Assembly: GCA_964469295.1 (NCBI GenBank)
Contig: CAYXYJ010000004.1
Span: 17,557 to 81,556 of the forward strand
Length of the DNA: 64,000 nucleotides
Direction of reading: 5' to 3'
Source of the DNA: an uncultured Candidatus Saccharibacteria bacterium
Lineage (GTDB): Bacteria > Patescibacteriota > Minisyncoccia > Phycocordibacterales > UBA918
Of this stretch, positions 18,865 through 36,883 are shown in pieces. A program made the translations under genes and the position numbers. How positions within the stretch are numbered: position 1 is the first letter of the stretch; each line of letters starts with the position of its first letter. Under the pieces are notes generated by a model, which searched no databases, was not told the DNA's origin, and saw only the letters and a list, made by a program, of their open reading frames with translations.

Positions 18865-19566
18865 CTAAAACAATTCCATGTTGTACTCCTTTGCCAAGAC
18901 TTCCAATGTGACGGCCTTATCAATCGAAAAATTTCCAACCTTTGTACGGCGTAAATTATATAATGTCGCGGGATAACCAAGTCTTTGACCAAACGCTTCG
19001 GCGAGCGAGCGAATATAGGTACCGCTACCTACTTGAAATTTAACCGTTACCAGTTGGAACTGTTTGTTATCAATGAAGAGTGCTTGGGACGTCATTAATT
19101 CGGTGGAGTAGACGTGCATGGCGCGCGCGGGCACGGGGAGCGCTTGGTGGCCTTGGCGCGCTGCGGCCCGCGCGCGCTTATACATCGGTACACCATCGAC
19201 TTTGATGGCGCTATAGGCGGAAACCGGCAGAGTGATGTCACCGTGCAGTGTGGCCAGGGTCGCGGAAATTTTTTCGGCCGAAAAAATTTCCGCCATTTCA
19301 CGCTCTGCCAACACCACCCCTTCCATATCCCCCGTACTTCGCTGTTGACCAATCAATATTTCAGCCACGTATTCTTTATCGAGTTTAACCAAAGCCGCAA
19401 GCTGCTTTGTCCACCCGCCAACGCCAACCAGCATAAGTCCTGTCGCCAGCGGATCGAGCGTCCCGGCATGACCAGCCTTTTTTACACTCAAAATCCGTCG
19501 CACGCGGGCAACGACGCCAAACGATGTCATACCGGCAGGCTTATCGATCAACAGAAGCGTTTCCAT
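18865..19566 (-). CDS. truB: tRNA pseudouridine(55) synthase
   Basis: LLIDKPAGMTSFGVVARVRR...GHAGTLDPLATGLMLVGVG catalytic Asp motif. Confidence 0.85.
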   Translation of the reverse strand: METLLLIDKPAGMTSFGVVARVRRILSVKKAGHAGTLDPLATGLMLVGVGGWTKQLAALVKLDKEYVAEILIGQQRSTGDMEGVVLAEREMAEIFSAEKISATLATLHGDITLPVSAYSAIKVDGVPMYKRARAAARQGHQALPVPARAMHVYSTELMTSQALFIDNKQFQLVTVKFQVGSGTYIRSLAEAFGQRLGYPATLYNLRRTKVGNFSIDKAVTLEVLAKEYNMELF

Positions 19567-19587
19567 ATCCGCACCAAACCCATTTCC

Positions 19588-20859
19588 CTAAAGCACCAAC
19601 AATTCGGGCGCCGTAATGAGAAGCGCACCTAAGAGCAGCATCAAGACTCCGCCAATCAGCAGCGACCAGCGCGAATATGTAGCACCATGGGCTTCAAGCC
19701 GTGTAAAGCCCCAAATCGCCAACCCAAATACAACAAAGTCGTCAATCATGTATCCTAAGGTGTAGAGCAAAATGTAGAACTGCCGCTCGACGAAAGTAAG
19801 TAAATTAAGATCAAGGATTTTCGTGTAGGCTTGCGGGATACCGATCGAACAGGCGAACTCGATAATATTGACTGAAAAGGCAATGAGAACAATCGCGCCA
19901 ATGGTCGTCAGGGTTAACGGCTGATTGATGATGGCCTTTAATTTATTCACGGTTTTCGTCTGACTATCGATATCGGTGATATCGCAGACGAGCGCTGTCG
20001 CCTGGCTCTTGTGCCAGCGGTATAAAAAGAAACTGCCCCCGCCGACCGCCAGAATGCCAACAAGTGGCGTGACGATCTGATCGAGCGCCACGAAATCCCA
20101 CGTCTTGTACCACACATTTAAAATCAGGTTGTACATGACGGCTTCGGCGACGATAAACAGTCCAGCCAAAAAGAGCATTTTGCGACGGCTGCCGGCCTGG
20201 GCCAAGAGCATCAAAAAGGTGATCAAAACCCACATGGCACATGGATTGAAGCCATCAATAAGACCAAGAAGGAGTGAGAGTGAAATGAGCGAAAATGATT
20301 TGAGATCAACCACCCCAATTACCGGCAAATCAAATGTAAACGAGGCTTCGGCGGCTGTACAGCCGATTTCGGAACAACCGCCACCAAATGGTACGACTTG
20401 CACCGGTGCCTGGGCGATATGATCTTCGACCGTGATTACGGTGGTATCGGACTGCGACTGAATCGCTTTTTCCAATTCGATTCCAGTGGTGCGAGGACTG
20501 TCAAAACCCAAAAACACTCGGTCTCCAATCACCGTCACTGGCGTTACTTTTGTCAGGTTGTGTTTGGCAGTTACCTGGTCATAGAGGTCTTTGGCAGCCG
20601 CATCCGTTTCGATATTAAGGTAGACGTAATCAATCCCCGCTCCGGTTAAAAATTCTTTTTCCGCTTTGCAAAAACCGCAAGTATCGCGACCAAACAGGTA
20701 CACGGTGGGTTCCTTACTGGTAGCCGGTACATTCATTACCTCATTCACAACTATACTGGGGTCAGTCACCGGTTCGGCTGCCGCCGAGGATACTGTCCAT
20801 CCGACTGAGATTGCTCCAAAGAATATCCACCCGGCCACCAAAACTTTTTTCGTTATCAT
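19588..20859 (-). CDS. glutaredoxin/thioredoxin-like domain fused to a polytopic DsbD/CcdA-like (DsbD_2) thiol-disulfide membrane protein
   Basis: signal/TM, CGFC redox motif, then a multi-TM domain with GFNPCAMW (Cys within TM) and a second Cys-containing TM segment. Confidence 0.45.
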   Translation of the reverse strand: MITKKVLVAGWIFFGAISVGWTVSSAAAEPVTDPSIVVNEVMNVPATSKEPTVYLFGRDTCGFCKAEKEFLTGAGIDYVYLNIETDAAAKDLYDQVTAKHNLTKVTPVTVIGDRVFLGFDSPRTTGIELEKAIQSQSDTTVITVEDHIAQAPVQVVPFGGGCSEIGCTAAEASFTFDLPVIGVVDLKSFSLISLSLLLGLIDGFNPCAMWVLITFLMLLAQAGSRRKMLFLAGLFIVAEAVMYNLILNVWYKTWDFVALDQIVTPLVGILAVGGGSFFLYRWHKSQATALVCDITDIDSQTKTVNKLKAIINQPLTLTTIGAIVLIAFSVNIIEFACSIGIPQAYTKILDLNLLTFVERQFYILLYTLGYMIDDFVVFGLAIWGFTRLEAHGATYSRWSLLIGGVLMLLLGALLITAPELLVL

Positions 20860-20882
20860 AGCGCACTCTAGTATATCAGAAT

Positions 20883-20919
20883 AACCACCGGGCGGGGGCT
20901 ACACCCCCGCCCGGTGGTT
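20883..20919. terminator. rho-independent terminator (AACCACCGGGCGGGGG-CTACA-CCCCCGCCCGGTGGTT)
   Basis: perfect 16-bp GC stem overlapping the 3' end of the DUF45 ORF. Confidence 0.6.
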
Positions 20920-21375
20920 ATTTCCCCTCTCGCCCCCGCCTGTCATCAGAGACGCAGTTTGATACGCCACCAAAGCTCCTCGACTCATTCCAATAGTTCT
21001 TTCGAGCAAACGCAATTCCTGACGATCCGCCACAAAGGTGGGGCACCAAATGGCTACTTCCTGCCAGAAAGCGGCGCCGTGATGTAAATGCCGACGATGA
21101 CACAATTCATGAATGACTACATACCGCATGAGATGTTCCGGCAAAAATAATAATTTGTAATGAAAATTCAGATTGCCTTTGGCGGAACAACTGCCCCAAC
21201 TGCGTTTGGTGTCCTTGATCGCTACACGATTATAAGTAACCCCGATCCGAGCAGCTTCAGCGGCAATAAGCGGCGCAAGCTTCGCTCGCGCCGCTTCTTT
21301 ATACGCCAAATACGCCTTGCGTTTTGGTGAGGCGTCACGAATGACCCGTCGCGTTGTCCGCCACAATCGCCGCAT
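20899..21375 (-). CDS. YgjP/DUF45-family metal-dependent hydrolase (WLM/SprT-like zincin)
   Basis: HELCHRRHLHHGAAFW zinc-binding HExxH-like motif typical of DUF45. Confidence 0.6.
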   Translation of the reverse strand: MRRLWRTTRRVIRDASPKRKAYLAYKEAARAKLAPLIAAEAARIGVTYNRVAIKDTKRSWGSCSAKGNLNFHYKLLFLPEHLMRYVVIHELCHRRHLHHGAAFWQEVAIWCPTFVADRQELRLLERTIGMSRGALVAYQTASLMTGGGERGNNHRAGV

Positions 21376-21377
21376 AC

Positions 21378-23162
21378 TTATACCGCGACCGCCTGTCGAT
21401 GATACGCTCGCACCAGTCGAATAAGATCGTAACCATACTGCTCGTCGGTCGCTTCATAGAGCGGTTTTAATTTATCGCTGCCGTGGACGGCAATGGCCTC
21501 ACAAATTTTTTTTATCGCGTGCCCAGAAACATCTAATTCAGCAATAGCTCGCTCTAAATCAGCAACTACCAAATTTCCATCTGCGACCAGTTTCTCAATA
21601 TGTTCCGCAATGGTACCAATATTAATCTCGCGATTTTTAGCGATTGACCGTAATGTCTCTCCCGCTTGCCAACGAGATTTGGTTTCTTCATAGGTTGACA
21701 GTTTTTTTGCACGTTCTTTGACCGCTCGTTTCCCGGGCAAGATAACCGTATCAGCACTTGGCAATTTCCCGCCACAACTCGTAATAAATTGCGTTTGTAA
21801 GGTAAGCAAATTGTCGTCACTCATAGCGACAAATGTATCTTCGGTATATTCAGAATCCATATGAAATTGCCTATCTCGGGTCACGACTTTTGGATCTACC
21901 TGCAGTGCATTTGGATGCATGCCCAAGACCTTTAAACCCGAAAGTGACCGCACCCGCGACAGCGCCACGTACCCCTGCCCGAACACAAACGCCTTCGATA
22001 AATCTACTTCAGCCGCATCGAGTGACATCCCCTGGCTTTTATGGACCGTGATCGCCCACGCCAGGCGAAGCGGGATCTGCTCGATTGAAGCGCGAATCTT
22101 GCCATCTTCGATGACATCCCAACTCATTGGTTCCATCAAGATTCGTCTTCCATCGAGAGTTTCAATAATCGGATGCGCATCGGTACTATTATCAAACCCC
22201 ACCACGCGCGCGAGCGTACCGTTGACGTATCCCGCTTCAAAATTATTCTTCGTACACATCACCATCGCGTCTTCTTTTACCGTCAAGGTATCCGGCGACA
22301 AGCAATTCTTCACGAGCACTTCAAGTAACGGTTTACTCCCCCGTCCCACCATCGTGTACGTTTTTGCACGTCCGGGCAACGCCGCTAATTTGGTGGCGTT
22401 CACCGCATCAACATCGGCATTGTGTGTATACAATTTCGTTGGCTCAACACCTTCGTACGCGATATCAGTCTGCTCATTCAGTAATGTGTAATGATCTTCC
22501 TCAATTTCATTGCGACGGATTGACGAGAGTAAACCGAGCAACAACTCATCCTCCTGTCGATGTTGTTCGGTCAGATAACAGACAAGCGGACGCGATTCAA
22601 GCCACGCCCGCGATTCAAACGCATAACGCATCATGTCACCTTGCCGCGTCACTGGTGGTAATTGGAAAAAGTCACCAACGAATATAACTTGTAGTCCGCC
22701 AAAGGCATCCTTTCGTTGTCTGATCGTCCGACAAATCACATCCACCATATCAAGGAGTTTCCCATCGAGCATCGAGATTTCGTCGATAACCAGCACGTGG
22801 GCTTTTTTAACTCGCTTTACGGTCGCCTCGCGACCGACAATTTGATCGAGGTCGTACTGTGTCAAAGTATCACGCGCCCCGGCGCCACTCCACGAATGAA
22901 TTGTCATGCCCCCGATATGCGTCGCCGCAATCCCGGTCGACGCCGTCACCGCGACGTGAAGCCCGCAGGCTTCAAGCCACGCGATATATTGGTTAATGAC
23001 ATACGTCTTCCCCGCCCCCGGCTCTCCGGTCAAAAAGACATTGGCACCGGTTTTTAGCACCTCTAACGCCCGCGCTTGGTTCATAGTGCCACTATCATAC
23101 CACGGCGACACAAACATTGACTTTTTTAAAAAATTGATAATATCACGGACGTCACCAACCAT
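21378..23162 (-). CDS. Pif1/RecD-like ATP-dependent DNA helicase with a C-terminal helicase-associated HTH domain
   Basis: Walker A GEPGAGKTYV, Walker B VLVIDEISM, SF1 motifs (VGDFFQLPPV, HKSQGMS), C-terminal helical HTH-like 130 aa. Confidence 0.75.
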   Translation of the reverse strand: MVGDVRDIINFLKKSMFVSPWYDSGTMNQARALEVLKTGANVFLTGEPGAGKTYVINQYIAWLEACGLHVAVTASTGIAATHIGGMTIHSWSGAGARDTLTQYDLDQIVGREATVKRVKKAHVLVIDEISMLDGKLLDMVDVICRTIRQRKDAFGGLQVIFVGDFFQLPPVTRQGDMMRYAFESRAWLESRPLVCYLTEQHRQEDELLLGLLSSIRRNEIEEDHYTLLNEQTDIAYEGVEPTKLYTHNADVDAVNATKLAALPGRAKTYTMVGRGSKPLLEVLVKNCLSPDTLTVKEDAMVMCTKNNFEAGYVNGTLARVVGFDNSTDAHPIIETLDGRRILMEPMSWDVIEDGKIRASIEQIPLRLAWAITVHKSQGMSLDAAEVDLSKAFVFGQGYVALSRVRSLSGLKVLGMHPNALQVDPKVVTRDRQFHMDSEYTEDTFVAMSDDNLLTLQTQFITSCGGKLPSADTVILPGKRAVKERAKKLSTYEETKSRWQAGETLRSIAKNREINIGTIAEHIEKLVADGNLVVADLERAIAELDVSGHAIKKICEAIAVHGSDKLKPLYEATDEQYGYDLIRLVRAYHRQAVAV

Positions 23163-23173
23163 AGGAGGTAAAA

Positions 23174-23812
23174 GTGACGAAAAAACGTAAAACTGGATTG
23201 TCCAATCCGCTGATCGATCTTTGCGCGGAGGTCTTCGGGTTGACCTCCATCACCTGTCCCCGCCGCTGCAGGCTCCCGGACGAGTACCGGAACATCGGTC
23301 TGAAGAATGTGCTTGGGGCTTGGGACGTCTGCTCTGACGTGATCAACTCCAACCAGGGCAAGTTGTACCTGCCGAAGGGCTGGGAACTGACCTTCCCTGA
23401 TACCCTGCGGATGGTGGTGGATTCTGAGCGTGGCCATCGTATGACCATTTCCGACAGCCGTGTCTATATCCATTCGCCGATCAGGGTTCAGATGAACGGT
23501 GACCTCGAGACGATGACTACCGAATGGGTCGAGGTACTGCATCACGGAGAGGTGGTCTTCCGTTCGACCATCCTGTCGTCCAAGGAACGTCCGATGGCTC
23601 CCGATGTCTACGAACTCATGAAGGAACTGGTTCCTCCGGACAATCCCTACTGGGAAAACGTGCCGGATGTTGCCATGCCCACTTCGGAAGAGGAACGGGA
23701 GCGTGCGAACTACGAGGCGTATCTGGCCCTGAAGCCGTACTACGATGAGGCCGAGGCGTTCGTTCGGGAGCACTACCCGCTTCTCAACAGGGACCCCAAC
23801 GCTTACTGGTAG
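23174..23812 (+). CDS. GC-rich hypothetical protein (ORFan)
   Basis: about 58-60% GC ORF with high GC3 in an AT-rich genome; AGGAGG RBS; the antisense ORF 23126..23773 is judged spurious. Confidence 0.4.
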   Translation: MTKKRKTGLSNPLIDLCAEVFGLTSITCPRRCRLPDEYRNIGLKNVLGAWDVCSDVINSNQGKLYLPKGWELTFPDTLRMVVDSERGHRMTISDSRVYIHSPIRVQMNGDLETMTTEWVEVLHHGEVVFRSTILSSKERPMAPDVYELMKELVPPDNPYWENVPDVAMPTSEEERERANYEAYLALKPYYDEAEAFVREHYPLLNRDPNAYW

Positions 23813-24211
23813 ATCAAGGCTCGCCAGACATTATATAGCACGACCTGGGTAGTGACGAGTTCCTTGAATCCATATTGGATTAATGTAAGTTCTTAAATAT
23901 GTACGCTCGCGTATTGAGCACCACCTGAGCCAGACATGAAAACGACAGCGATTCGCCGCATCACCCCCCTGCTACATGCATGGGGGTTTATTTTATAAAA
24001 ACATGGCTAACGACACGAATCATAATAGCGTTTTATTGACTCTTTCGTAGATATCGTTACTCTATCGTTAGATGTCCAAACCGCTTAGTTGCTAAACGGC
24101 AAACCGGTCCGCAGTCGCACACCTATCATGACCCTGCTGACGCCTTATGTTTCTGCTAAGGCCTGCACGGACGATTCCAACAACGCACACAAAAAAATGG
24201 AGGAGACTAAA

Positions 24212-27315: not shown

Positions 27316-27356
27316 GTCCACTCCCCCCTTTATTTTTTTGCAAATGTCTGCTATAA

Positions 27357-27392
27357 ATATGGGCACTTTTGCTATAGCAAAAGTGCCCATAT
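27357..27392. promoter_or_regulatory. perfect 36-nt palindrome ATATGGGCACTTTTGC-TATA-GCAAAAGTGCCCATAT; candidate operator or terminator
   Basis: seen in sequence; lies about 45 nt upstream of gene 26752..27315 and about 35 nt before tRNA-Glu. Confidence 0.4.
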
Positions 27393-27426
27393 TTCATTAC
27401 GTCAAAACGCAGTATACGATTTATAT

Positions 27427-27498
27427 GGTCCCATCGTCTAACGGCTAGGACAGCAGGTTTTCATCCTGCAAATCGGAGTTCGATTCTCCGTGGGATCA
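27427..27498 (+). tRNA. tRNA-Glu (anticodon UUC)
   Basis: cloverleaf folded by hand: acceptor GGTCCCA/TGGGATC, D-arm GTCT-AACGGCTA-GGAC, anticodon stem GCAGG/CCTGC with loop TTTTCAT (UUC), T-arm CGGAG-TTCGATT-CTCCG; resembles canonical bacterial tRNA-Glu; no encoded CCA. Confidence 0.85.
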
Positions 27499-29162
27499 CA
27501 AATAGAGGATAATCGGTCAGAGAAAGGTTCAAATCCTTTTTTGACCTTATAATCAAGCATATTTTTTGCTACATAGAGTTCTGAAAAGATGACACGTGCG
27601 ATGTTCTCTTTTTCGTGCGGTTTTGCATAATCGTAAACAGGCACAACGTTTTTTATCAGTTCTGAAAGAATGATAATCTCTTTCATCAGCTCTGCCATCG
27701 CTTCGTCTGATGCGCTCTCTGCCTCCTGTAGTGCTGTTAGTTCTCCCTGTAGTCGCTCACCCTCGGCAACAAGTCCCTCTGGGGTGTACACGCCTGATTT
27801 GAGTAGCTGTAAACGATTGGTATTTAAGTATGAGATGTCATCTCGAATACGCTTTTTTGTACGCTCCATCTGTTGTATCTCTCTAAAGCGACGCTCATCC
27901 AACAAAGCAACATCGGTACTGGTCCGCGCATCTAAATCAGCAAGTTCGTCATCTGTAAAATGTAGTCCTGCAATCAGTCCACTTATTTTGTTAGAGATAA
28001 AATCAAAGTTGCAGTTTTTGAGAGTGTTCTCGCAATCCTTTACGCATCGTGAATTGAAATACAGGATGCCTTTCTTGGTATATGGAGTATAAACTCGTTT
28101 ACAGTGAGCGCATCGGACCATACCGCGCATTGGGTGGTCCAGTTTTTCTGTATAGTGGACACTTACTTTCTTTTTACCCAAGAGTGATTGGACCAGATTA
28201 AATAACTCATCATCAACAAGCGCCTCGTGGCTAGTACTCTGAATATAAATGCCGTCTGGACCGATTATCTTTCCCGTATAAAACTGATTGGTCAAAATAC
28301 GGCTAATGCTATTCTCATTTACTGGACGAGTGGTTTTTTCAATCTCAATATCCTCATCCTCATCGGCGAGGATTTCATCTCGTGAGCGACGACGGCGCAT
28401 TGGTACAGTCGTAAAACCTTGGTCATTTGCAAAACGTGCAATGTCTGACAAGCTCCAGTCACCCGTTGCATATTTTTCAAACATTTCTTTTATTATCGGC
28501 GCTCGCACAGGGTCCAACGGCTTATCGTCCATACTACCGATATTTAGATACCCGATTGGCGCTCTGTAGGTACATTTTCCTTTAGTACGGCTATTTCTAG
28601 TACTCATCGTTACTTTCTCGCTAGTTACGCGAGAATGATGTTGAGCAAACATTCCATCAATATCCATATGGAGCGCACCAGCACTTGTGTCGTCATACGT
28701 AGCGTAGGCAAAACGCACGTCAATACCTCGTCGCATCAATTTGCGAATGATTGTATCGTCACCTTTATTTCGACTAATACGGTCCCAACAAAGGACCACC
28801 ACACCCTTGAAATAACCTCTGCTTAAATGTTGTAGTAGCTGTTGGAACTTTGGTCGGTCAATACGGTACTGAACCACGCCATCATCAGAAATATGTAAAT
28901 CATCTGTCTCCTTAAATCCAGAGTGCTTTTCAGAAACAACACCATCGGTACAAAAGCCCTTTAGAGTTACTGGAGCAAGTTGTAGACGTTCACGTGTCAA
29001 AAAACGCATATTCTCTACTCGTTGGTATGGGATAGAGTTCTTTTGATTATTCGCCTCGTCGGTACTTTTACGATTGTAAATAAGATAGTGGTCACTATAA
29101 ATACCGCTTTGAATAGCTTTCAGAATATCTGTCTCTATTTTCGGCTTTTTATTCATTTTCAT
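27438..29162 (-). CDS. large serine recombinase (integrase)
   Basis: N-terminal resolvase domain (IYNRKSTDE catalytic Ser, VVLCWDRISR), recombinase domain, zinc ribbon CAHCKRV...CVKDC, C-terminal coiled-coil; the last approx 20 codons overlap the tRNA-Glu gene. Confidence 0.85.
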   Translation of the reverse strand: MKMNKKPKIETDILKAIQSGIYSDHYLIYNRKSTDEANNQKNSIPYQRVENMRFLTRERLQLAPVTLKGFCTDGVVSEKHSGFKETDDLHISDDGVVQYRIDRPKFQQLLQHLSRGYFKGVVVLCWDRISRNKGDDTIIRKLMRRGIDVRFAYATYDDTSAGALHMDIDGMFAQHHSRVTSEKVTMSTRNSRTKGKCTYRAPIGYLNIGSMDDKPLDPVRAPIIKEMFEKYATGDWSLSDIARFANDQGFTTVPMRRRRSRDEILADEDEDIEIEKTTRPVNENSISRILTNQFYTGKIIGPDGIYIQSTSHEALVDDELFNLVQSLLGKKKVSVHYTEKLDHPMRGMVRCAHCKRVYTPYTKKGILYFNSRCVKDCENTLKNCNFDFISNKISGLIAGLHFTDDELADLDARTSTDVALLDERRFREIQQMERTKKRIRDDISYLNTNRLQLLKSGVYTPEGLVAEGERLQGELTALQEAESASDEAMAELMKEIIILSELIKNVVPVYDYAKPHEKENIARVIFSELYVAKNMLDYKVKKGFEPFSDRLSSICDPTENRTPICRMKTCCPSR

Positions 29163-29376
29163 TTTGTTTGACCAGTCGTCCCTCTATTATAACGTACCCA
29201 TCTTTCCTCATCCTGATGTATATAGGTTTGAGTACCTCGGACAGCTCTACCAGTGCCTTTAGCGAGCAGTCGGATAGCACCTTATTTGGGACCTTATCGC
29301 AACTCACAAAACCGCGTTGCAAATCGCTTTTTTCAAACGTACTGGTTTTGTGTAGCTCGCTCATTATCGTGTGCAA
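29149..29376 (-). CDS. small protein overlapping both neighbours; candidate recombination directionality factor/regulator
   Basis: 75-aa ORF whose ends overlap the Rep gene (13 nt) and the integrase gene (14 nt); no motif recognised. Confidence 0.3.
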   Translation of the reverse strand: MHTIMSELHKTSTFEKSDLQRGFVSCDKVPNKVLSDCSLKALVELSEVLKPIYIRMRKDGYVIIEGRLVKQNENE

Positions 29377-30545
29377 TTAGCCAAAACAGAGCGAGTAACG
29401 AGTTCATATTTTTCGATTTCGTCATCTACAAAAGCCACACCATTTGCATATGGCAAACCTTTTGTAAGTTCTGACGCTTGGTTGATTTTCTCATTTAATC
29501 GCTCTGGATGTTCTCCGTTCCAGTGACTAAATATAAGTCGGCGGAACTCTTTAACACCGTTTTCACGGATGATACAAGTCAAACCATATGCTACGAGCGC
29601 CTTGTTCATACTATGAGCGCCACCAAGCGCTTTTGCGCCCTCTACAATGCGCTGTAGCAAGCGAAAACTATCAATAGGACCAATGAGTGCTAGTTGGTTT
29701 TCTGGACGGCTAACAATGTCGCGCCACGAGTTCAATAGCACTTTTTGAGATAATCCCTCCGTAAACAGGTCCCTGAAAGCTACGTAGGTTAATGGCTTAC
29801 GGTCCATTGCAGAATTGATGTCTCGCTGTACCGTCTGGGTTTTCTTGATGCGATACTCGTAGCGAAAAATCTCCGTATGCTCTAGGTTATATTCGTCAAT
29901 AAGAGTTCGCTCATAATCAATATGACCCTTATCTTTTCGCTTCACCTTGGGTCGCATTGCATCTACTACCTTGTCGTAAAAAACTCGCTCTACGGTCCCA
30001 CAGTAGAGGTGTAATATCTGACCACCGTTTTTTGTTTCTTTGGCGGTCACATCAAATGCTTTCCCAATATCTACACGCCCAAGCTCTGCCAAAATATCTT
30101 GTAAGCGTATGTCTCTTGGCAATAGTACATTCTTGCAAAAATGAACCGCCGAAACGCGAGCGCTCGCAATAGCTTCATTTTCGATTTTGATACCAACACG
30201 TAAAAGTACATCTCTAAACACGGTCACTACTTTCCCAAAGTCCTTATCTGACACCTCTTGTAAACTGTTGCCGTAAAGTAACTTCGGTATTGAAAACTCT
30301 GCAATGAGTACGTACACAATCGTTTTATGCTCTCTATCCAGAGTTTCAAGAACATCAATTTTTGGGGTGTAGCGAGATTGATGTGGAGCTTTAAGCACAA
30401 ACCGTCGCAAATACATTCGATTTGAAAGCTGTTCAGTTGGTGAAAGCTCGTGATATTTACGGCTATATATTTCAGGCAAGAACCAATCCTTTTTTGTAAA
30501 GGTAAACTTCTTGGGTCCGTATATCTTGAGAATGACTGTATCCAT
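29364..30545 (-). CDS. replication initiation protein, Rep_trans-like (rolling-circle type)
   Basis: blocks resembling Rep_trans conserved regions (ILHLYCGTVERVFYDK... and EIFRYEYRIKK); recalled from memory, not searched. Confidence 0.4.
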   Translation of the reverse strand: MDTVILKIYGPKKFTFTKKDWFLPEIYSRKYHELSPTEQLSNRMYLRRFVLKAPHQSRYTPKIDVLETLDREHKTIVYVLIAEFSIPKLLYGNSLQEVSDKDFGKVVTVFRDVLLRVGIKIENEAIASARVSAVHFCKNVLLPRDIRLQDILAELGRVDIGKAFDVTAKETKNGGQILHLYCGTVERVFYDKVVDAMRPKVKRKDKGHIDYERTLIDEYNLEHTEIFRYEYRIKKTQTVQRDINSAMDRKPLTYVAFRDLFTEGLSQKVLLNSWRDIVSRPENQLALIGPIDSFRLLQRIVEGAKALGGAHSMNKALVAYGLTCIIRENGVKEFRRLIFSHWNGEHPERLNEKINQASELTKGLPYANGVAFVDDEIEKYELVTRSVLANCTR

Positions 30546-30591
30546 AGTGATATTCGTTGTTGTCGGTATTTTTCAAGGAAACCTCTGCTCG

Positions 30592-30858
30592 CTAGTCGGA
30601 GTAGAGTTTTGTCTTGATAGCTTTTAGATTGTCAAAGTACGACCGCGCTTTGACTTTAAGGTCGTCACTGAAAAAGCGATTGGAGGCAATCTCAATTCCT
30701 TTCTTATACTCAAATACAAACAAGACACGCCGTCCGTTTGAGCGGTCCAGATTTTGCAACTTATAACCGACAGTCAAGAGTGCTGTTGAAAGTCCCAAGT
30801 CGTATGTTGTGAAAACGTCGTCACCACTGTTCTCTTCATTGCTCTTTTCTTTATTCAT
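30592..30858 (-). CDS. DUF5659-like small protein
   Basis: TTYDLGLSTALLTVGYKL...RVLFVFE core typical of DUF5659 proteins found beside integrases in mobile elements. Confidence 0.5.
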   Translation of the reverse strand: MNKEKSNEENSGDDVFTTYDLGLSTALLTVGYKLQNLDRSNGRRVLFVFEYKKGIEIASNRFFSDDLKVKARSYFDNLKAIKTKLYSD

Positions 30859-30976
30859 AGTAATTGTTTATGTGTTAGTGCGAGACGATGTCTCATACAT
30901 AAATGGCATAAAGTTACCGAGTAAGAAAAAACACCCAGTTTACGGGTGTTTCGTCCGTTAGATTTTATTCTATTTG

Positions 30977-32227
30977 TTACTGCGAGAATGATTTGAAAAT
31001 GTCATCTGCTTCACTGGCGAGGGTTTCTGCTTTTGTTGGTTCAGTATTTTTATCCGTATACCCGATAGTCATTTTGAGTGTGTACGCTTTCTCCTTTGTG
31101 TAAGTCTTAAATGGGTCAGTATCAAGACGGAAGTAGTTTTTGAGAGCAGTTGAGAGGCGAGCTTTTTGTTGTTTATACTTATCTTTTGCTTCTGGGTCAG
31201 ACGCGGGTAGTGAGCCACCCTGTTTTGCAAGCAGTCGGAGCAGTATCCATAACTCATTGCAAACACCTTTCTTTCTACCATCAGCAAAACCCATATCCGC
31301 AAAACCTGTTTCAAGTGAATTGCCAGCAACATTGATTTTGACATACTCATCATTCAAGAACGTGAGCATTATATTTTCCCAGCGTGTACCATCAGGAATG
31401 GTGTACGGGAAACCAACTTTGGTGGTTTTATCTGGGCTAGTGTTGTTGATATTCAAGTCAATCGGCTTCTCTTGGATGCTGTTCTCAAAGCGATGGTTAT
31501 GCTCGTGCCGTATCACTTTTTCAACTATCTTTTCTGCATTTTCCTGTGTCACTTTAGGACTTTCTTTTGGTGCAATAAGCATATCCTCATTTATTTTGCA
31601 GTGTGCATAGTCAAATATCCAGCCATAGTCGTCAACAGCTCGCTCTTCAAACTCATATGAGGTTACCAAGCCAATTTCGTGTAGACGTTCAATTGCAATT
31701 CGGCGGTAGTACGGGAGATTTACATCATCAGGAGCAGGGTCATAGTTCGATAACGTAAGATTATCTCCCATTGGATACTCATACGTCACACCTTTGATAC
31801 GTATTTTGTTGTATTCATTCTTAAAAAAGTTCACCGCTTCCATTAAATAATCAGTTGATGTCTTACCCTTTTGTGTAAAATCTACCGCCACTTTTTCGGT
31901 ACTAAAACTATCAACCTTTTCGAGCATATAATAATCACCGTTCCCCACAAGAGTGAGGTCTTTGATATATTGTTCCTGCTCCAATTTCTGCAAAATCCGC
32001 CGATGCTCATTCCTTGTTAAAGCTGTCCACTCTTCTGGATTATCAGGATGCCCGACACTGGTGACGTGATACCGAATAGGTCCCTTTGGGCTTATCAAAG
32101 TTTCACCGTCTATATTGTCTTTTACATACTGTATTTTTTCTTCGGGCGACATAATATATTCATTTTCATACTCATCAAAAGCAATGCCTTTAATATGGCT
32201 TATTGTAAAGGTATTATTATCTTTCAC
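30977..32227 (-). CDS. hypothetical protein (416 aa), first gene of the leftward island operon
   Basis: long ORF; no recognised motif. Confidence 0.4.
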   Translation of the reverse strand: MKDNNTFTISHIKGIAFDEYENEYIMSPEEKIQYVKDNIDGETLISPKGPIRYHVTSVGHPDNPEEWTALTRNEHRRILQKLEQEQYIKDLTLVGNGDYYMLEKVDSFSTEKVAVDFTQKGKTSTDYLMEAVNFFKNEYNKIRIKGVTYEYPMGDNLTLSNYDPAPDDVNLPYYRRIAIERLHEIGLVTSYEFEERAVDDYGWIFDYAHCKINEDMLIAPKESPKVTQENAEKIVEKVIRHEHNHRFENSIQEKPIDLNINNTSPDKTTKVGFPYTIPDGTRWENIMLTFLNDEYVKINVAGNSLETGFADMGFADGRKKGVCNELWILLRLLAKQGGSLPASDPEAKDKYKQQKARLSTALKNYFRLDTDPFKTYTKEKAYTLKMTIGYTDKNTEPTKAETLASEADDIFKSFSQ

Positions 32228-32322
32228 AAGGTGCTTGCATTTTTGTGAATATATTGTATATTACTTTCTGAAAGAACCCTCGTCGTGGAGGTCTCACGAA
32301 GTTCAATAAGACGGAGGAATAA

Positions 32323-32862
32323 ATGTCCGACACATATGGTTCGCAAGAAGCCCAAGACCTCATCACCTTGGAGGTGAAGGTCGAAGGTTATGACAATTGG
32401 CGCGACGCTTTCGCTGAAGAAGTCGAGCTTTCGGGAACTTGGGCAAAGGAAGCGGGGAAAAGCAAAGCTTCGTTGCTCGAAGCGTGCGATATCACTGCAC
32501 GTCTGAACCGCATTTCCCGAGAGGTTGAATACTTCTCGACCCTCATCAATATGGGCTATGCCCTTGAAGAAGCTGTTGTCACCTTCGACAACGACAGCTG
32601 GGGCAAGTTCGGGAAATGCACGTGGATTAAGGACCATACGTCGTACTCTGACCCCGAGGTCTTCTGGCGGAAGGTGGTTCCTGAAGCATCCGATTACTCT
32701 GTGTCCCTCGTTGCCGCCTGTTTCAACACGGAAAACGCGGGCGAGCAGAAAATCACGCTGTCCTCGGTCGCTATCAGCTCTGGCTTCCTCTTTCACAAGA
32801 CCCTTCGTTTCCACCGTATGGTTTTTTCAAAACCGAAGGAGAAAGAAGCAGTCGCCGCCTGA
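32323..32862 (+). CDS. GC-rich hypothetical protein (cargo)
   Basis: GGAGGAATAA RBS, elevated GC, downstream hairpin plus T-run; the antisense ORF 32224..32814 is judged spurious. Confidence 0.4.
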   Translation: MSDTYGSQEAQDLITLEVKVEGYDNWRDAFAEEVELSGTWAKEAGKSKASLLEACDITARLNRISREVEYFSTLINMGYALEEAVVTFDNDSWGKFGKCTWIKDHTSYSDPEVFWRKVVPEASDYSVSLVAACFNTENAGEQKITLSSVAISSGFLFHKTLRFHRMVFSKPKEKEAVAA

Positions 32863-32967
32863 TTGGTCCTATCGCCTTGAAGCCGTCTCGGTTTCGAGGC
32901 GGTTTCTTTTTTATATAACAAACTCTTGTAGTATTTGTATGTTTGATTTGATGTACTGCCTCTCTTT

Positions 32968-32999
32968 ATAAAGTTCTGAAAGCCACGCTAATGGGTCAC
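32968..32999 (+). repeat. island repeat copy 1 (left half only): ATAAAGTTCTGAAAGCCACGCTAATGGGTCAC
   Basis: seen directly; 32/32 identical to copy 4. Confidence 0.8.
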
Positions 33000-33047
33000 C
33001 AATTAGAGAGCTGGTTCGAGCACTCGAGAAGGCTCGAATCTCGAAAC

Positions 33048-33077
33048 AAAAAACTACTCAGATCTGAGTAGTTTTTT
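33048..33077. terminator. bidirectional terminator (AAAAAACTACTCA-GATC-TGAGTAGTTTTTT)
   Basis: perfect hairpin with flanking A/T runs. Confidence 0.7.
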
Positions 33078-33666
33078 GTTATTAGCTCACAATACTTTCA
33101 TCAACCATAATTAGCTGGACGAGCCAGTCCAAGTTCTTCAACATAATCTCTCTTATCATTAGATTCACCCTTCACGATATCAAAAGAGATGTCGCTGATA
33201 CACACGATATTGATTTAGTGTATTTTGACAATATAAACATAGATGAAGAAAAAGACAGAAAACTTTCAGAGAGTATGAAAGGTGCTCTTGGCCTTGATTG
33301 GGAAATAGTTAATCAAGCTTACACACATAAATGGCACGACAGAGACACTCCGTATACGAACACTGCAGAAGGGTTGTCAGAGTGGGTAGAAACACCTACT
33401 TGCGTTGGGTGACACTAGAGAACGAAGAACCAAAGATAGTAGCTCCTCACGGGATTGATGACCTCGTTAACTTGATAGTTAGACCAACTCCAAGTCGGAA
33501 AGGTGATTTGAGTATTTTTTACAAAAGAATTGAGAGTAAAAAATGGTTAGAAAAGTGGCCCAAACTACGAGTGGTTACTGAAAGAAGATAAGAAACAAAA
33601 TCAAGAACTATATGAAAACCCCGACAGACTTGCGTCTATCGGGGTCCCCCCCTGACGGTCAGACCG

Positions 33667-34080
33667 TCAAATCACGATATCGACCGGGGAGATGCTCCAC
33701 CCCATCACACCTTGCGGAACGAGGTCGGCTTTCTTGCCCTGCTTGGGGCGAGTGCCGAGTCGGTCACGCAGGTACTGAAGCAGGCTGTTTACTGCCTTCT
33801 TGTGGGTCTTCTTCTCGCCATCGGGGAGGATGTAGTGGAACGCAATGTAATGCGTGCCATCACCGCCTGCACCACGGATGTGGAGGTCAACCCAACGTTC
33901 GGGCGTGCGAGACTTCATTTCGGAAATGAAGTCAGCGAGCTTCTCGATGGACACCGAAGCGTCGAACTTCACGGTGCCAGCGACATGGTGGTCACGGTTC
34001 AAAAGAGCAGTCATCAGTTTCTCCCATAAACGTGGAGGGTACGCATAATCGGGATTGACTATGCTTTTTTTTAATATCAC
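33667..34080 (-). CDS. GC-rich hypothetical protein (cargo)
   Basis: approx 58% GC ORF; the antisense ORFs 33612..33929 and 33712..34029 are judged spurious. Confidence 0.4.
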   Translation of the reverse strand: MILKKSIVNPDYAYPPRLWEKLMTALLNRDHHVAGTVKFDASVSIEKLADFISEMKSRTPERWVDLHIRGAGGDGTHYIAFHYILPDGEKKTHKKAVNSLLQYLRDRLGTRPKQGKKADLVPQGVMGWSISPVDIVI

Positions 34081-34160
34081 ACTTTTGCGTGTTTTGCAAG
34101 CCCTCGCCTATACCAAACTACCAAGCAAAACAATGCTACTTTTAATATATTCTCGGTCCT

Positions 34161-34253
34161 TATACAGTTCTGAAAGCCACGCTAATGGGTCACAAAGTAA
34201 AGAGCTATAGTTATCGAGGTATTTCAGGGCACCTTACTGGGAGTTCAGAACTC
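34161..34253 (+). repeat. island repeat copy 2 (full approx 93-nt dyad unit: left half 34166-34193, imperfect inverted right half 34219-34253)
   Basis: seen directly; followed by a TGTATAAT -10-like box 8 nt upstream of ATG at 34275. Confidence 0.8.
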
Positions 34254-34274
34254 TTTATTGTATAATTTTACTAT

Positions 34275-35066
34275 ATGGAAAATATGCCAATAGTAGATGA
34301 ATTTGTTGCACCGAAAAAGAATGTTTTATTTGAAATGACTACTGTATCAAAGACACTCGCTGCAATTTTATTCATTTTGATGCCATTCGTAGGTGGCTAC
34401 ATCGGATTTAAAATAGCAAATTCTATAAAAGCGACGCCCGTTATTGAGGTGCCGACCATAACAGATACAACCGCTGTTTCAGAAGTAAAAATCTTGCGAG
34501 TCAGAGGAGAGTCTATGTCTAACAGAATGTTAGCCTACTGGTGTAATGAGTCCGACATAAACTGTCTGCAACACAAATCTTCCGTTCCTAACGATTCAGT
34601 AGACGTTACTGCCTTGTATGCAGAATCTGCAACAAGTACATACTTGCTAGATTTACTTTACATATCAGAGTCAACTTCTAAAGCTTATTTTAGAACGGCA
34701 AATGAACGAGACGAAGTTGTAGGTCTTGTTAGTTTTGATATGAACACAAAATCTATTATTAATGCAGATGAACTATATGGAGAACTCGAAGCAATGGATA
34801 TTGCATATGATGGTCGTTACATTGTGTTTGCAAACAAAGAACGAAATGAAGTGCTTGTATCTGACCTTGAAAAGGGTGCACTTATAAATAAGGAAAAAGT
34901 TACAGGTGGAACACTCCAAAAATCTAACTGCGATCCCGCATTAAAACCTGCTGATATAACACTCACATATAACTATCAGGTGCGTTTTCAAATCTACTCT
35001 AGTGAGTTGACTAGTAGTTGCGAATACAAGCCAACTGCAGTTGGCAACTTCCCAATTACACACTAA
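34275..35066 (+). CDS. membrane-anchored/secreted hypothetical protein (263 aa)
   Basis: N-terminal TM helix (LAAILFILMPFVGGYIGF); no SD, so possibly leaderless. Confidence 0.4.
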   Translation: MENMPIVDEFVAPKKNVLFEMTTVSKTLAAILFILMPFVGGYIGFKIANSIKATPVIEVPTITDTTAVSEVKILRVRGESMSNRMLAYWCNESDINCLQHKSSVPNDSVDVTALYAESATSTYLLDLLYISESTSKAYFRTANERDEVVGLVSFDMNTKSIINADELYGELEAMDIAYDGRYIVFANKERNEVLVSDLEKGALINKEKVTGGTLQKSNCDPALKPADITLTYNYQVRFQIYSSELTSSCEYKPTAVGNFPITH

Positions 35067-35137
35067 TTAATTTATGCGTAATCCTTTAAACAGATTTTTA
35101 ATGAAATGATACTCCGCTTAATATTTTCTCTTTCTAG

Positions 35138-35230
35138 ATAAAGTTCTGAAAGCCACGCTAGTGGGTCACAACATAAGAGCTATATTTACCAACGTATTTC
35201 AGGGCACCATAATGGGTGTTCAGAACTTTG
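35138..35230 (+). repeat. island repeat copy 3 (full dyad unit; terminal inverted repeats AAAGTTCTGAA / TTCAGAACTTT)
   Basis: seen directly; one substitution (CTAGTGGG) relative to the other copies. Confidence 0.8.
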
Positions 35231-35243
35231 ATATACTTTTCCA

Positions 35244-35714
35244 ATGAATAGGGACGTTTGTTTCGTTGCATTCAATAACACCATAGCTGCTAAAGTGCTG
35301 TCTCGTCTTTCCCAATTTCAGACCTATACAATTGAGAGTGATTTTTCTTCATTGGCTGATTTTGTAAAAACAGCGGATGTTTTGGATGCAAAATACATCA
35401 TTGGTCTTGGACAATACTCTGGGAGAGATAGAGATATGCTACGCATCGAGACCCGATGTAATAAAAACTTTAGAAACAATCCGATAGAAAAATCTAATAA
35501 GTTACAATTGGACGACATTCTTACGTTGACAGACAAATCCAAGCGAGCAACTGGTCTGGGTAACTCCTGGTGCAATCTCATATCTGTAATGATGCTAAAC
35601 AACACAAAGCGCAACTACTTATACGCATTCATACATATACCAAAAAACTTCAATCCTAAAGTCGCTGCAAAAGAGATACTTGAGATGCTTCCAAACAATC
35701 TTGTAGTTCGATAA
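35244..35714 (+). CDS. short peptidase C15 (pyroglutamyl peptidase I)-like protein
   Basis: GLGQYSGRDRDMLRIE (Glu region) and GLGNSWCNLI (catalytic Cys region) resemble Pcp motifs; shorter than canonical Pcp. Confidence 0.35.
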   Translation: MNRDVCFVAFNNTIAAKVLSRLSQFQTYTIESDFSSLADFVKTADVLDAKYIIGLGQYSGRDRDMLRIETRCNKNFRNNPIEKSNKLQLDDILTLTDKSKRATGLGNSWCNLISVMMLNNTKRNYLYAFIHIPKNFNPKVAAKEILEMLPNNLVVR

Positions 35715-35742
35715 TGCTTTGATGGATAGTTACTCTATCCTC

Positions 35743-35774
35743 ATAAAGTTCTGAAAGCCACGCTAATGGGTCAC
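35743..35774 (+). repeat. island repeat copy 4 (left half only)
   Basis: seen directly. Confidence 0.8.
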
Positions 35775-35781
35775 TAGTATA

Positions 35782-35807
35782 GAAAATGCGCCCTTGGGCG
35801 CATTTTC
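35782..35807. terminator. bidirectional terminator (GAAAATGCGCCC-TT-GGGCGCATTTTC)
   Basis: perfect 12-bp stem. Confidence 0.7.
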
Positions 35808-35895
35808 TATTTACAAGCTTCAAAATCAAACAATTTCGGAAACTTTTTTACTTACAGTAATCACATAAGCAATACTGGGAATGCTTGAGATGGAT

Positions 35896-36883
35896 TATCT
35901 AAAATCCTGCATACTTACCTTTCCTGAAACGCTTCCTTGCTCGAGCAAGGTGATGAACGCTTGTTCACGGAGATTGGCTTCTTCATCAATACACGCTTTT
36001 TTGGTACTGACTCCCTGACCAAAGACCACACTGTCGCCTTCAATACTGTATTCGCCGACAATATTGTTGCAACAAAATTTGCCATATAGCGACCATCGGC
36101 AAACGTAATCGTGCCACCGTTATAACTCACCCCTTTTCCGTCGAGAGATGATACCCCTGTGTCAGCATTTGTTGTCGCTTCGGCTTCGATGTCTACAGAC
36201 ATGGTGCCGTCAGCATTAAATCCGTTTTCTACCGTACAGGTATGACAAATGCCATATTTGTCTTTCCAGACCTTGTTTTCAGCATCAAAAACGATATCGT
36301 TTTCTTTGCCGTTGATTGAGGTGATGTTGACCAAGGTATATTCGTAGGCACTCGCGTCAGCGGGAACATTGGTCTTTTCCTTCCGTTCTACTTCTATTAC
36401 GTAGGAATTACCCTCTATATAATCAAAACCGGCAATAGTATCGTAGAACATTTCGTTATTTATCATCAAACACTTTTGTGGACCAACACCAACACAATCA
36501 ACTTTTTCTGGACCGACGTTGAACGTCAGAGTATCGGCTGTGGTAGTTGCGTCACGTTCGGTGGTAATGAGCTTTGCTCCTTCAGCGACTGTTTCACCAT
36601 TGATTTCTAGTGATGCTTCACCTTGATGTTCCCAAAAAACCACACTTTCGTCTTTATTCGTGTAGCGGGCTCCCGACCAAGACACGACTCGATCGAGTTC
36701 ATATTGTTGACCATCAATAGTCACGGTCGCGGTGTCACCATCATTGCTGTACGCCACGGCAAAATGCGTATCGGCAGTTGCAAAAACAAACGAATTGTCT
36801 TCGGTGGTAGTAGTGACAGTTTTTTCTTTGGTGTTTTCCAGCAAATAGTATCCAGCCACTAGAAATGCTACTATCCCGAGCAT
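35896..36883 (-). pseudogene. MliC-like plus META (HslJ-like) domain membrane/lipoprotein gene, interrupted by a 1-nt frameshift in an A4/T4 homopolymer (approx 36075-36078); either a true pseudogene or a sequencing error
   Basis: the ORF-track frame (35915..36883) ends in nonsense, while the +2 frame from about 36080 to 35896 reads as a clean META domain (GKFCCNNIVGEYSIEGDSVVFGQGVSTKKACIDEEANLREQAFITLLEQ); one extra T/A would join the frames. Confidence 0.45.

Follow-up and report, generated by a model that had tools for sequence, protein, structure and literature searches.

What closes each gene in a row of small and unrelated genes with the same short sequence? The question is raised by a locus in a 64,000-nucleotide (nt) stretch of DNA from an uncultured Candidatus Saccharibacteria bacterium (assembly GCA_964469295.1, contig CAYXYJ010000004.1, positions 17,557 to 81,556 of the forward strand). 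This whole stretch is called the window below. A sequence-only reading of the locus had described a cassette-like array punctuated by a conserved motif, and had considered an integron-type system, another recombinase, a shared promoter or operator, a miniature inverted-repeat transposable element (MITE) and a structured RNA. We consider it very probable that the motif is the tail of a large serine recombinase (LSR) gene that doubles as the left arm of an attachment (att) site, and that one copy accompanies each of several insertions stacked behind a glutamate transfer RNA gene (tRNA-Glu) by elements of Patescibacteria.

The 30-mer AAAGTTCTGAAAGCCACGCTAATGGGTCAC occurs on the plus strand at 32970, 34164, 35140 and 35745, with 0, 1, 1 and 0 mismatches, respectively. 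Since no match arose in 100 shuffles the four co-oriented copies are real; the coordinates first given for them were 2 nt off. A profile search found no fifth copy in the 64-kb window, and in an alignment of the four copies the similarity extends beyond the 30-mer by about 50 nt on the upstream side. From the stops of the plus-strand open reading frames (ORFs) that end at 32862, 35066 and 35714 it is 108, 74 and 31 nt to the start of the motif, distances that replace an earlier estimate of 25 to 95 nt. Copy 2 lies, as had been described, in the divergent spacer between a 137-amino-acid (aa) ORF on the minus strand and a 263-aa ORF on the plus strand. The inverted partner reported for copies 2 and 3 (..GGGCACC-N6-GGGTGTTCAGAACTTT) is present, in imperfect form, after both. 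At copy 3 the terminal inverted repeat AAAGTTCTGAA/TTCAGAACTTT, claimed as 11 bp long, is perfect over 11 nt; its version at copy 2 is imperfect. A perfect palindromic terminator stands 45 nt behind copy 1 (33045-33080) and a second one behind copy 4 (35781-35812), both seen before, as was the box TGTATAAT (34259-34266), which ends 8 nt ahead of the ATG at 34275.

The motif was identified as coding because its reverse-complement translation gave a conserved peptide with codon-patterned variation. On the minus strand it reads ..CDP-LAWLSELYKEREYIKS..stop, and among 143 unique copies from the window and related loci (designated L with a number) the translation follows CDP(L/I/T)(A/G)WLSEL(Y/V)K(D/E)RE.IKSSIQ.L.., with conservative replacements. 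From the Asp codon to the stop the tail frame measures 26 to 38 codons (median 29) in about 135 of the 143 copies. In a six-frame test over 28 codons this frame was open in 128 of 143 copies, against 0 to 39 of 143 for the other five. Outside the search pattern the entropy at codon positions 1, 2 and 3 is 1.50, 1.25 and 1.74, lowest at the second and highest at the third. The codon pattern thus identifies the motif as the probable 3'-terminal coding segment, about 29 codons and a stop, of LSR genes read on the opposite strand.

The window holds an LSR gene at 27438..29162 on the minus strand, assigned by Pfam, PHROG and alignment. The sequence-only reading, in allowing for a recombinase other than IntI, had already named this gene 4 kb upstream as a candidate, and it is the most likely one. 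Its 574-aa product matches PF00239 (Resolvase, 2.7e-14), PF07508 (Recombinase, 3.8e-13) and PHROG 95 integrase (2.9e-57), with an N-terminal resolvase-type catalytic domain that precedes the Recombinase domain; the LSR of locus L040 matches both Pfam families likewise. Residues 1-557 are LSR, whereas the final 17 aa, TENRTPICRMKTCCPSR (27438-27491), are the antisense of the tRNA-Glu gene. In the alignment the window protein leaves its intact homologues exactly after ..SSICDP(557), and residues 1-557 joined to the tail encoded by motif copy 1 are colinear with these homologues up to the C-terminus. In L040, L122, L082/L110 and L063 the tail frame extends upstream for about 550-590 codons, and intact LSR ORFs of 554-617 aa read through the motif. 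The ends of L040, a complete contig of 11,834 bp, overlap by 127 nt within a methylase gene; as it has an intact LSR and no tRNA, it most likely represents such an element in circular form.

Among the 120 best homologue representatives, 74 carry a tRNA-antisense tail, 28 an intact tail and 4 a third recurrent tail, and 14 end otherwise or are cut. In about 60% (74/120) of the closest LSR homologues the annotated C-terminus is thus an artefact read from tRNA antisense, and the tails that became detached carry no annotation. Within the tail W558, S560 and E561 are invariant in 27 intact homologues. An AlphaFold2 model of the intact homologue P0006 (mean predicted local distance difference test score, pLDDT, 79) places the tail in a helix at 555-590, with pLDDT of about 85 up to residue 580, which comes after the last beta-hairpin; further helices are predicted at 402-510. 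The best Foldseek matches of this model are solved serine integrases (9dxh, phiC31, Bxb1 and 4kis, E=5e-14 to 1e-6), and in the LSR sequence Cys motifs (CAHC..C..C) precede long helices. The model is consistent with an overall LSR-like fold with a zinc ribbon and an inserted coiled coil. A phmmer search of the reconstituted LSR against PDB sequences returned nothing. The third recurrent tail (..C(E/D)EI(I/L)TFARTYF..) ends the homologues P0008, P0012, P0043 and P0104, and the peptide CEEILAFARTHFEE of this tail is also encoded in L011/L135 on the motif strand, directly past a terminator palindrome. This suggests a second, inverted target made by the palindrome TCACAAA../..TTTGTGA.

The antisense end of the LSR leads to the anchor of the array, a tRNA-Glu(ttc) gene at 27427..27499 on the plus strand (ARAGORN; Rfam tRNA, 58.6 bits). 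Its 3' end, ..GTGGGATCAC, makes up the left side of the first junction (left arm of attB, or attL). Thirty-two of the motif-bearing sources contain a tRNA; in 29 of these a tRNA-Glu is located upstream of the motif, on its strand, and 2 more have a tRNA-Arg; a tRNA-Glu downstream of the motif or on the opposite strand was never found. The tRNA ends in ..GT(A/G)GGGTCAC and the motif in ..GGGTCAC, with a shared core of 4-14 nt depending on the locus; in L056 the 14 nt common to both are CCCTGTAGGGTCAC. What follows this core is interchangeable. A class (a) right arm, AAAATAAGGAGCTATATTTATCAACGTATTTCAGGGCACC..GTGTTCAGAAC.. with a -10-like box and an ATG, comes after the motif in some loci and after tRNA-Glu in others. 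The same holds, always behind ..GGGTCAC where the tRNA precedes, for a class (b) right arm, CAATTAGAGAGCTGGTTCGAGC.., and for the 3' end of the LSR gene itself. Translated in the LSR frame, the class (a) arm gives ..ALKYLDNYSSLLCDP and the class (b) arm ..SSLIGDP, with stop codons further upstream in both, so that both arms appear to be non-coding relics of LSR codons ~540-557.

Pairwise comparisons place the breakpoint exactly after GGGTCAC in four cases. Identity between the window and L071 (98.3% over 765 nt) ends at 32999, and the end of GGGTCAC likewise bounds the comparisons of L028, where a motif precedes, with L102, where tRNA-Glu does (98.5%/1351 nt), of L059 with L101 (100%/1364 nt) and of L032/L069 with L127 (99.6%/1374 nt). 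The sequences can be taken to establish that the motif is coding, that the gene is split, that tRNA-Glu is the anchor and where the junction lies. The sequence-only reading is in part supported by these results; it had missed that the motif codes on the minus strand, that the array is anchored at tRNA-Glu (27427-27499) and that the recombinase gene is cut by insertion. A perfect 40-bp palindrome, AAATATGGGCACTTTTGCTA / TAGCAAAAGTGCCCATATTT, was also observed at 27355-27394, 33 nt upstream of the tRNA-Glu, where it overlaps the start of a 212-aa ORF on the minus strand.

With these borders the cassette-like array of the earlier description becomes four tandem units, each ending at GGGTCAC and bounded by conserved recombination-site sequence. 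Unit 1 (27500..32999) is a 5.5-kb LSR element whose backbone is also found in L007, L099, L138, L139 and the circular L040. Besides the LSR it carries, on the minus strand, a 75-aa ORF (29149-29376), a 393-aa ORF (29364-30545), a DUF5659 gene (30592-30858; also in L040) and a 416-aa ORF (30977-32227), and on the plus strand the cargo ORF p179 (32323-32862). It is closed by motif copy 1, the detached LSR tail ORF DPLAWLSELYKERQYIKSNIQILQEFVI and its stop (32911..32999, minus strand), which would serve as the left (P) arm, with the junction after 32999, where identity with L071 ends. The other three units are without LSR. Unit 2 (33000..34193, 1194 nt) consists of a class (b) right arm with the relic ..SSLIGDP (33000-33044), the palindromic terminator (33045-33080), a degraded ORF (33218-33591, +), the 137-aa ORF p137 (33667-34080, −) and the second tail ORF, DPLAWLSELYKDREYIKSSIVLLGSLV plus stop (34108..34193, −). 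Homologues of p137 in L002 and L007 also adjoin a tail, and it is the minus frame that shows the stronger conservation.

Unit 3 (34194..35169, 976 nt) starts with a class (a) right arm (34194-34274) that contains the inverted GAGTTCAGAAC and the box TGTATAAT at 34259-34266, followed by the 263-aa ORF p263 (34275-35066, +) and the third tail ORF, DPLAWLSELYLERENIKRSIISLKICLKDYA plus stop (35072..35169, −). Unit 4 (35170..35774, 605 nt) is built alike, with a class (a) right arm (35170-35243) holding GTGTTCAGAAC and TTGATATACT, the 156-aa ORF p156 (35244-35714, +) and the fourth tail ORF, DPLAWLSELYEDRVTIHQSIIELQDCLEASQVSLLQRL plus stop (35656..35774, −), which overlaps the 3' end of p156. The right half of the dyad unit thus stands directly before near-leaderless ORFs, as the suggestion of leaderless transcripts implied. 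The description of the 156-aa ORF as peptidase C15-like did not hold up, since it gave no Pfam match at E<=0.01. After the last junction, behind 35774, comes a right flank (35775..35812, +) with the perfect hairpin terminator, presumably the original sequence downstream of tRNA-Glu (B'), and past it a convergent MliC/DUF4377 gene (35915-36883, −).

The GC-rich ORFs p137 and p179, with a guanine-plus-cytosine (GC) content well above that of the surrounding element, gave no Pfam or PHROG match; ORFs 83-98% identical to them occur elsewhere (L002 and L007; L071 and L079), always beside a tail. Among the scanned proteins of 26.7-36.9 kb in the window no tyrosine integrase was found, while a serine recombinase is present. 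Look-ups of three window proteins gave no strain variant or empty site on record. Elsewhere in the window the region 19000-24000 has a GC content of 0.48-0.53, compared with about 0.43-0.45 in the remainder.

The motif is widespread in Patescibacteria (candidate phyla radiation, CPR), where at least about 130 contigs besides that of the window share its architecture. An exact-pattern scan of 185,579 representative species genomes, one genome per species, gave 17 stretches with one match each and at most a few diverged extra copies nearby. Sixteen of the 17 are uncultured Patescibacteria/CPR metagenome-assembled genomes (Saccharibacteria, Paceibacterota, Kaiserbacteria, Nomurabacteria and Tayloriibacteriota). 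The other, L009 (CAZNAO010000047.1), is a motif-bearing 4-kb contig binned as an uncultured gammaproteobacterium, an assignment that is probably a binning error. A looser pattern gave at least 120 metagenome stretches, and a 73-nt profile built from the retrieved copies at least 163 copies (147 unique) in at least 132 sources; these counts apply to the matches listed. Arrays of 2-4 copies, 0.4-3.3 kb apart, are present in 23 of the 132 sources among these matches, and the copies are co-oriented in all 23. The LSR is the recurrent neighbour of the motif across the related loci. Two scans of viral contigs and a GenBank phage search did not find the motif.

Some loci show other states. In L139 a tRNA-Glu is followed by a single 5.28-kb element with one tail and then host genes, which is the layout of unit 1 in its simple state. 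L138, 13.4 kb of a Logan contig (SRR30978041), carries beside tRNA-Glu(ctc), and not tRNA-Glu(ttc), an LSR 99% identical to that of the window; the adjoining 71-aa and 393-aa ORFs are shared as well (95.9% nt identity across 3.2 kb). The presence of so similar an LSR beside a different isoacceptor gene points to recent movement of the element. Two small whole contigs, L068 (1135 nt) and L051 (1671 nt), have terminal overlaps of 123 and 53 nt and consist of one or two class (a) cassettes and a further unit, designated X; they may represent circles after excision or, alternatively, assembled tandem repeats. The X unit is a non-coding segment of about 230 nt that often lies past the motif junction and is absent from the window. 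It was seen in L013 (7180-7600, −), L014 (5850-6440, −, two copies), L051, L068, L071/L034, L046, L022, L025, L079 and L093. It comprises a terminator-like hairpin (GGGTCAC../..GTGACC), a second hairpin, GGGAATCGAA..long stem..CGATTCCC and then GTGAGGTCAC, the last being a tRNA-Glu-like 3' end and again the left half of a junction. The downstream X sequence (GGAATCGAA..) was considered as a tmRNA, an RNase P RNA or a reverse tRNA, and ARAGORN and Rfam were negative. A structured RNA is one possibility for the X unit, a decoy attachment site another.

In view of the above, the following course of events can be proposed. In the free circular form the LSR gene would be intact, with the core GGGTCAC (..CDP.. 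in the protein) inside its ORF. This core would recombine with its counterpart in the tRNA-Glu 3' end (..GTAGGGTCAC), by which the element is inserted and the tRNA left intact. Insertion would cut the LSR gene 29 codons before its stop, so that the body becomes fused to tRNA antisense and the tail is moved to the far end of the element. Repeated events at one core could then stack four units behind tRNA-Glu, each closed by a tail copy, of which unit 1 would be the complete 5.5-kb LSR element and units 2-4 would lack the recombinase. The class (a) arm of units 3 and 4 would be a relic that sets a -10-like box a few nt before the ATG of a single cargo gene. A putative half-site role and the coding constraint together may account for the unusual nucleotide conservation of the motif. 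We infer that the LSR would catalyse the insertions, that units without LSR may have been moved in trans and that loss of the tail may alter LSR activity; the function proposed for the array draws on its sequence anatomy and on natural polymorphisms. Growth of the array could involve relaxed specificity, insertion of multimers or homologous exchange between arms.

How well do the borders agree with the sites of other serine recombinases? LSR att sites measure 40-50 bp and consist of quasi-symmetric half-sites around a central dinucleotide, with the zinc-ribbon domain (ZD) motif 5 bp nearer the centre in attB. The strongly conserved left block of 26-28 nt has the size of an attP half-site, for which PMC3783163 gives 25 bp. 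In the motif the sequence GTTC starts 27 nt away from the junction, and in tRNA-Glu 22 nt away; the difference of 5 nt has the same sense as that of the zinc-ribbon motif between attP and attB, but a match of 4 nt only carries little weight.

Several observations weigh against the proposal of stacked insertions at tRNA-Glu. By-eye inspection of the arms gave no clear quasi-palindromic half-sites around the core, such as LSR att sites usually have. What lies on the right of tRNA-Glu (B') varies among genomes, which is unusual for recognition of attB by an LSR. Of the 64 loci whose sequence reaches more than 1.5 kb upstream of the motif, 44 show no tRNA there, and the left end of the identity between the window and L071, at 32235, is not at a junction. 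L138 has no tail copy within 11.6 kb, and would be either a locked-in element or part of a much longer array. All related loci were retrieved via the motif, so that an ascertainment bias exists and conservation within the search pattern cannot be judged. Finally, canonical LSRs do not recombine attP with attL or attR (PMC3783163), and because such partners are avoided the serial stacking is left unexplained by textbook rules.

This last point gives some room to an explanation in which the units did not move by themselves. Units 2-4 could be the deletion leftovers of LSR elements that inserted themselves and then decayed in situ, never having moved without an LSR; we regard this as a tentative possibility. 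It would respect the attP x attB rule of canonical LSRs, and it would account for the origin of class (a) and class (b) arms as relics of LSR codons ~540-557 with stops upstream, for the degraded ORF in unit 2 and for p179, which is cargo of the LSR element in the window and a stand-alone unit in L071. However, 38 copies of the class (a) arm, at 28 loci with unrelated cargo, agree in sequence and in an internal deletion, and 8 of them come directly after tRNA-Glu; independent deletions would not yield the same arm. The tail ORFs of the units without LSR also remain open. The identical arm and the open tails argue that such units propagate as such, probably in trans, by analogy with the movement of SCC-like cassettes by Ccr.

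A second explanation, which we judge improbable, dispenses with a site-specific step: units would be exchanged by homologous recombination in the conserved arms, about 80 and 75 nt long, as might happen following DNA uptake. The arms are long and nearly identical among units, and the left border of the window/L071 identity is off the core, both as such exchange would predict. Yet in the four comparisons given above identity ends in the 7-nt core and not within the arms. The tRNA-Glu shares just the core (4-14 nt) with the motif and is nevertheless followed by the same right arms, and the integrated LSR genes are cut at one codon.

It is very unlikely that the motif is a cis-regulatory element or a small RNA, be it a promoter or operator, a riboswitch-like leader or an element of a 3' untranslated region. 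The motif-upstream region contains a TGATATAAT-like box, behind many copies there is a terminator with a stem beginning at GGGTCAC, and the class (a) arms put a -10-like box right before an ATG. The first of these is accounted for by codons, since the -10-like box in the motif-upstream region encodes E-Y-I-K, and the codon-periodic variation keeps the peptide and not base pairs. The neighbouring genes are unrelated, and a promoter scan gave 6 sites against 7.4 expected, a number not above that in shuffles. Rfam, searched with gathering thresholds and at E<=10 in the window region and in 20+7 related loci, returned tRNAs and chance-level matches only, so that no RNA family was found even at the permissive limit. 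The structured RNA and the operator that had been entertained for the 93-nt unit are disfavoured by these results. Two related ideas were given up: covariation of a small hairpin in the variable 7 nt of the motif, dropped once the codon pattern emerged, and a promoter with a conserved leader, a first impression from the flanks, for which Rfam was empty and the variable positions were unlike base pairs.

Still less credible is an integron-like system, in which the 93-nt dyad would be an attC-type folded site for a tyrosine recombinase (IntI- or Xer-like) encoded elsewhere. The spacing of 600-1200 nt and the 11-nt terminal inverted repeats at copy 3 resemble such arrays, and so does the folding of the copy-3 unit on the minus strand (z=-3.0). 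Single-sequence folding of the 93-nt units on both strands, the check that had been recommended, gave inconsistent z values of -0.3 to -3.0 and left copy 2 near shuffles (-0.3 to -0.95). An IntI is not present, R'' (RYYYAAC) and R' (GTTRRRY) boxes are absent from the motif region, and the inverted partner is missing from copies 1 and 4 and from most copies elsewhere. Moreover, genes lie on both strands, conservation is of sequence at the codon level and not of structure, and the recurrent neighbour is an LSR whose ORF holds the site. The likeness to attC or Vibrio cholerae repeat (VCR) arrays that had been drawn from the window is thus not borne out as membership. A dispersed repeat of the repetitive extragenic palindromic (REP) or MITE type, although it would be short, conserved, intergenic and partly dyad-symmetric, can practically be discarded, as the window has only four copies at one locus where many dispersed copies per genome would be expected, the 17 representative-genome stretches have one exact match each with few diverged copies beside it and no genome-wide scatter, and the copies are always co-oriented and downstream of tRNA-Glu.

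If the proposal of LSR tails as att arms behind tRNA-Glu is correct, it bears on how Patescibacteria acquire genes. These organisms have tiny genomes and few recognised routes of horizontal transfer, and widespread tRNA-Glu-targeting elements with stacked single-gene units would explain part of the accessory gene flux of the CPR. The system would also be a serine-recombinase case of a site within the recombinase gene, which in the literature searched was found for tyrosine integrases only. A compact LSR with a conserved tRNA target could serve as an integration tool in organisms without genetic systems. A wider proposal, doubtful but conceivable, is that the elements form a serine-recombinase counterpart of integrons, with the att site inside the ORF acting as a built-in switch of activity or directionality. 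In such a scheme the C-terminal helix would be lost on insertion and regained on excision or on landing behind a resident tail copy. Promoter-bearing, recombinase-less, single-gene mini-cassettes, which keep both arms including the open tail ORF, would be exchanged in trans at tRNA-Glu between lineages of phylum level, as a main route of gene flux.

The array can finally be compared with systems that combine some of its features. In Prochlorococcus tycheposons, elements are likewise stacked at a tRNA anchor, and cargo-only remnants are bounded by repeats of the attachment core. The punctuating repeat of tycheposons is reportedly a partial tRNA copy and their recombinases are said to be mainly of the tyrosine type, whereas here the repeat is a recombinase tail plus a 7-nt core shared with the tRNA. 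Integrons share the co-oriented repeats between small, mostly single-gene, unrelated and often ORFan units, and a boundary site that is a composite of two neighbouring units. They differ in that the present array has neither IntI nor an attC consensus and no obligatory hairpin, that its units carry their own -10-like box with genes on both strands, that the anchor is a tRNA gene and not attI, and that the repeat is protein-coding.

Closer likenesses are found in the SSV-type 'suicidal' integrases and in the staphylococcal cassette chromosome (SCC). A recombination site inside the integrase ORF is also known from int/attP of phage Mx8. SSV-type elements likewise have the site within the integrase ORF and insert at a tRNA gene, and their integration splits or alters the integrase gene, with fragments left at both ends. 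However, the SSV-type enzymes are tyrosine recombinases and the present one is a serine recombinase, of which the last ~29 codons are detached while the body gains a tRNA-antisense tail of 17-19 aa, in place of the formation of two pseudogenes. For SSV-type elements PMC7253208 describes hybrid integrase genes reassembled from fragments of different origin. Our literature search returned no description of this LSR family or of an LSR with the site inside its own ORF, which is not proof of novelty. SCC and SCCmec composite islands, moved by the large serine recombinases CcrAB or CcrC, also consist of tandem units at a single chromosomal site, bounded by short direct repeats of the integration core, with some units lacking a recombinase. 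The target of SCC is rlmH/orfX, whereas here it is the 3' end of tRNA-Glu. In the present array the site lies inside the LSR ORF, so that each boundary repeat comes from the recombinase gene itself; its units, of 0.6-5.5 kb, fall well below those of SCC in size, and it is hosted by Patescibacteria. Ccr recombinases move SCC-like cassettes in trans (PMC11470126), as may occur here. The array falls outside SCC because of its target and presumably its recombinase clade, outside the SSV type because of its recombinase class and outside integrons because IntI and attC are missing. By analogy, it would join the composite-island organisation of SCC to the split-gene logic of SSV-type elements, and its likeness to integrons appears superficial.

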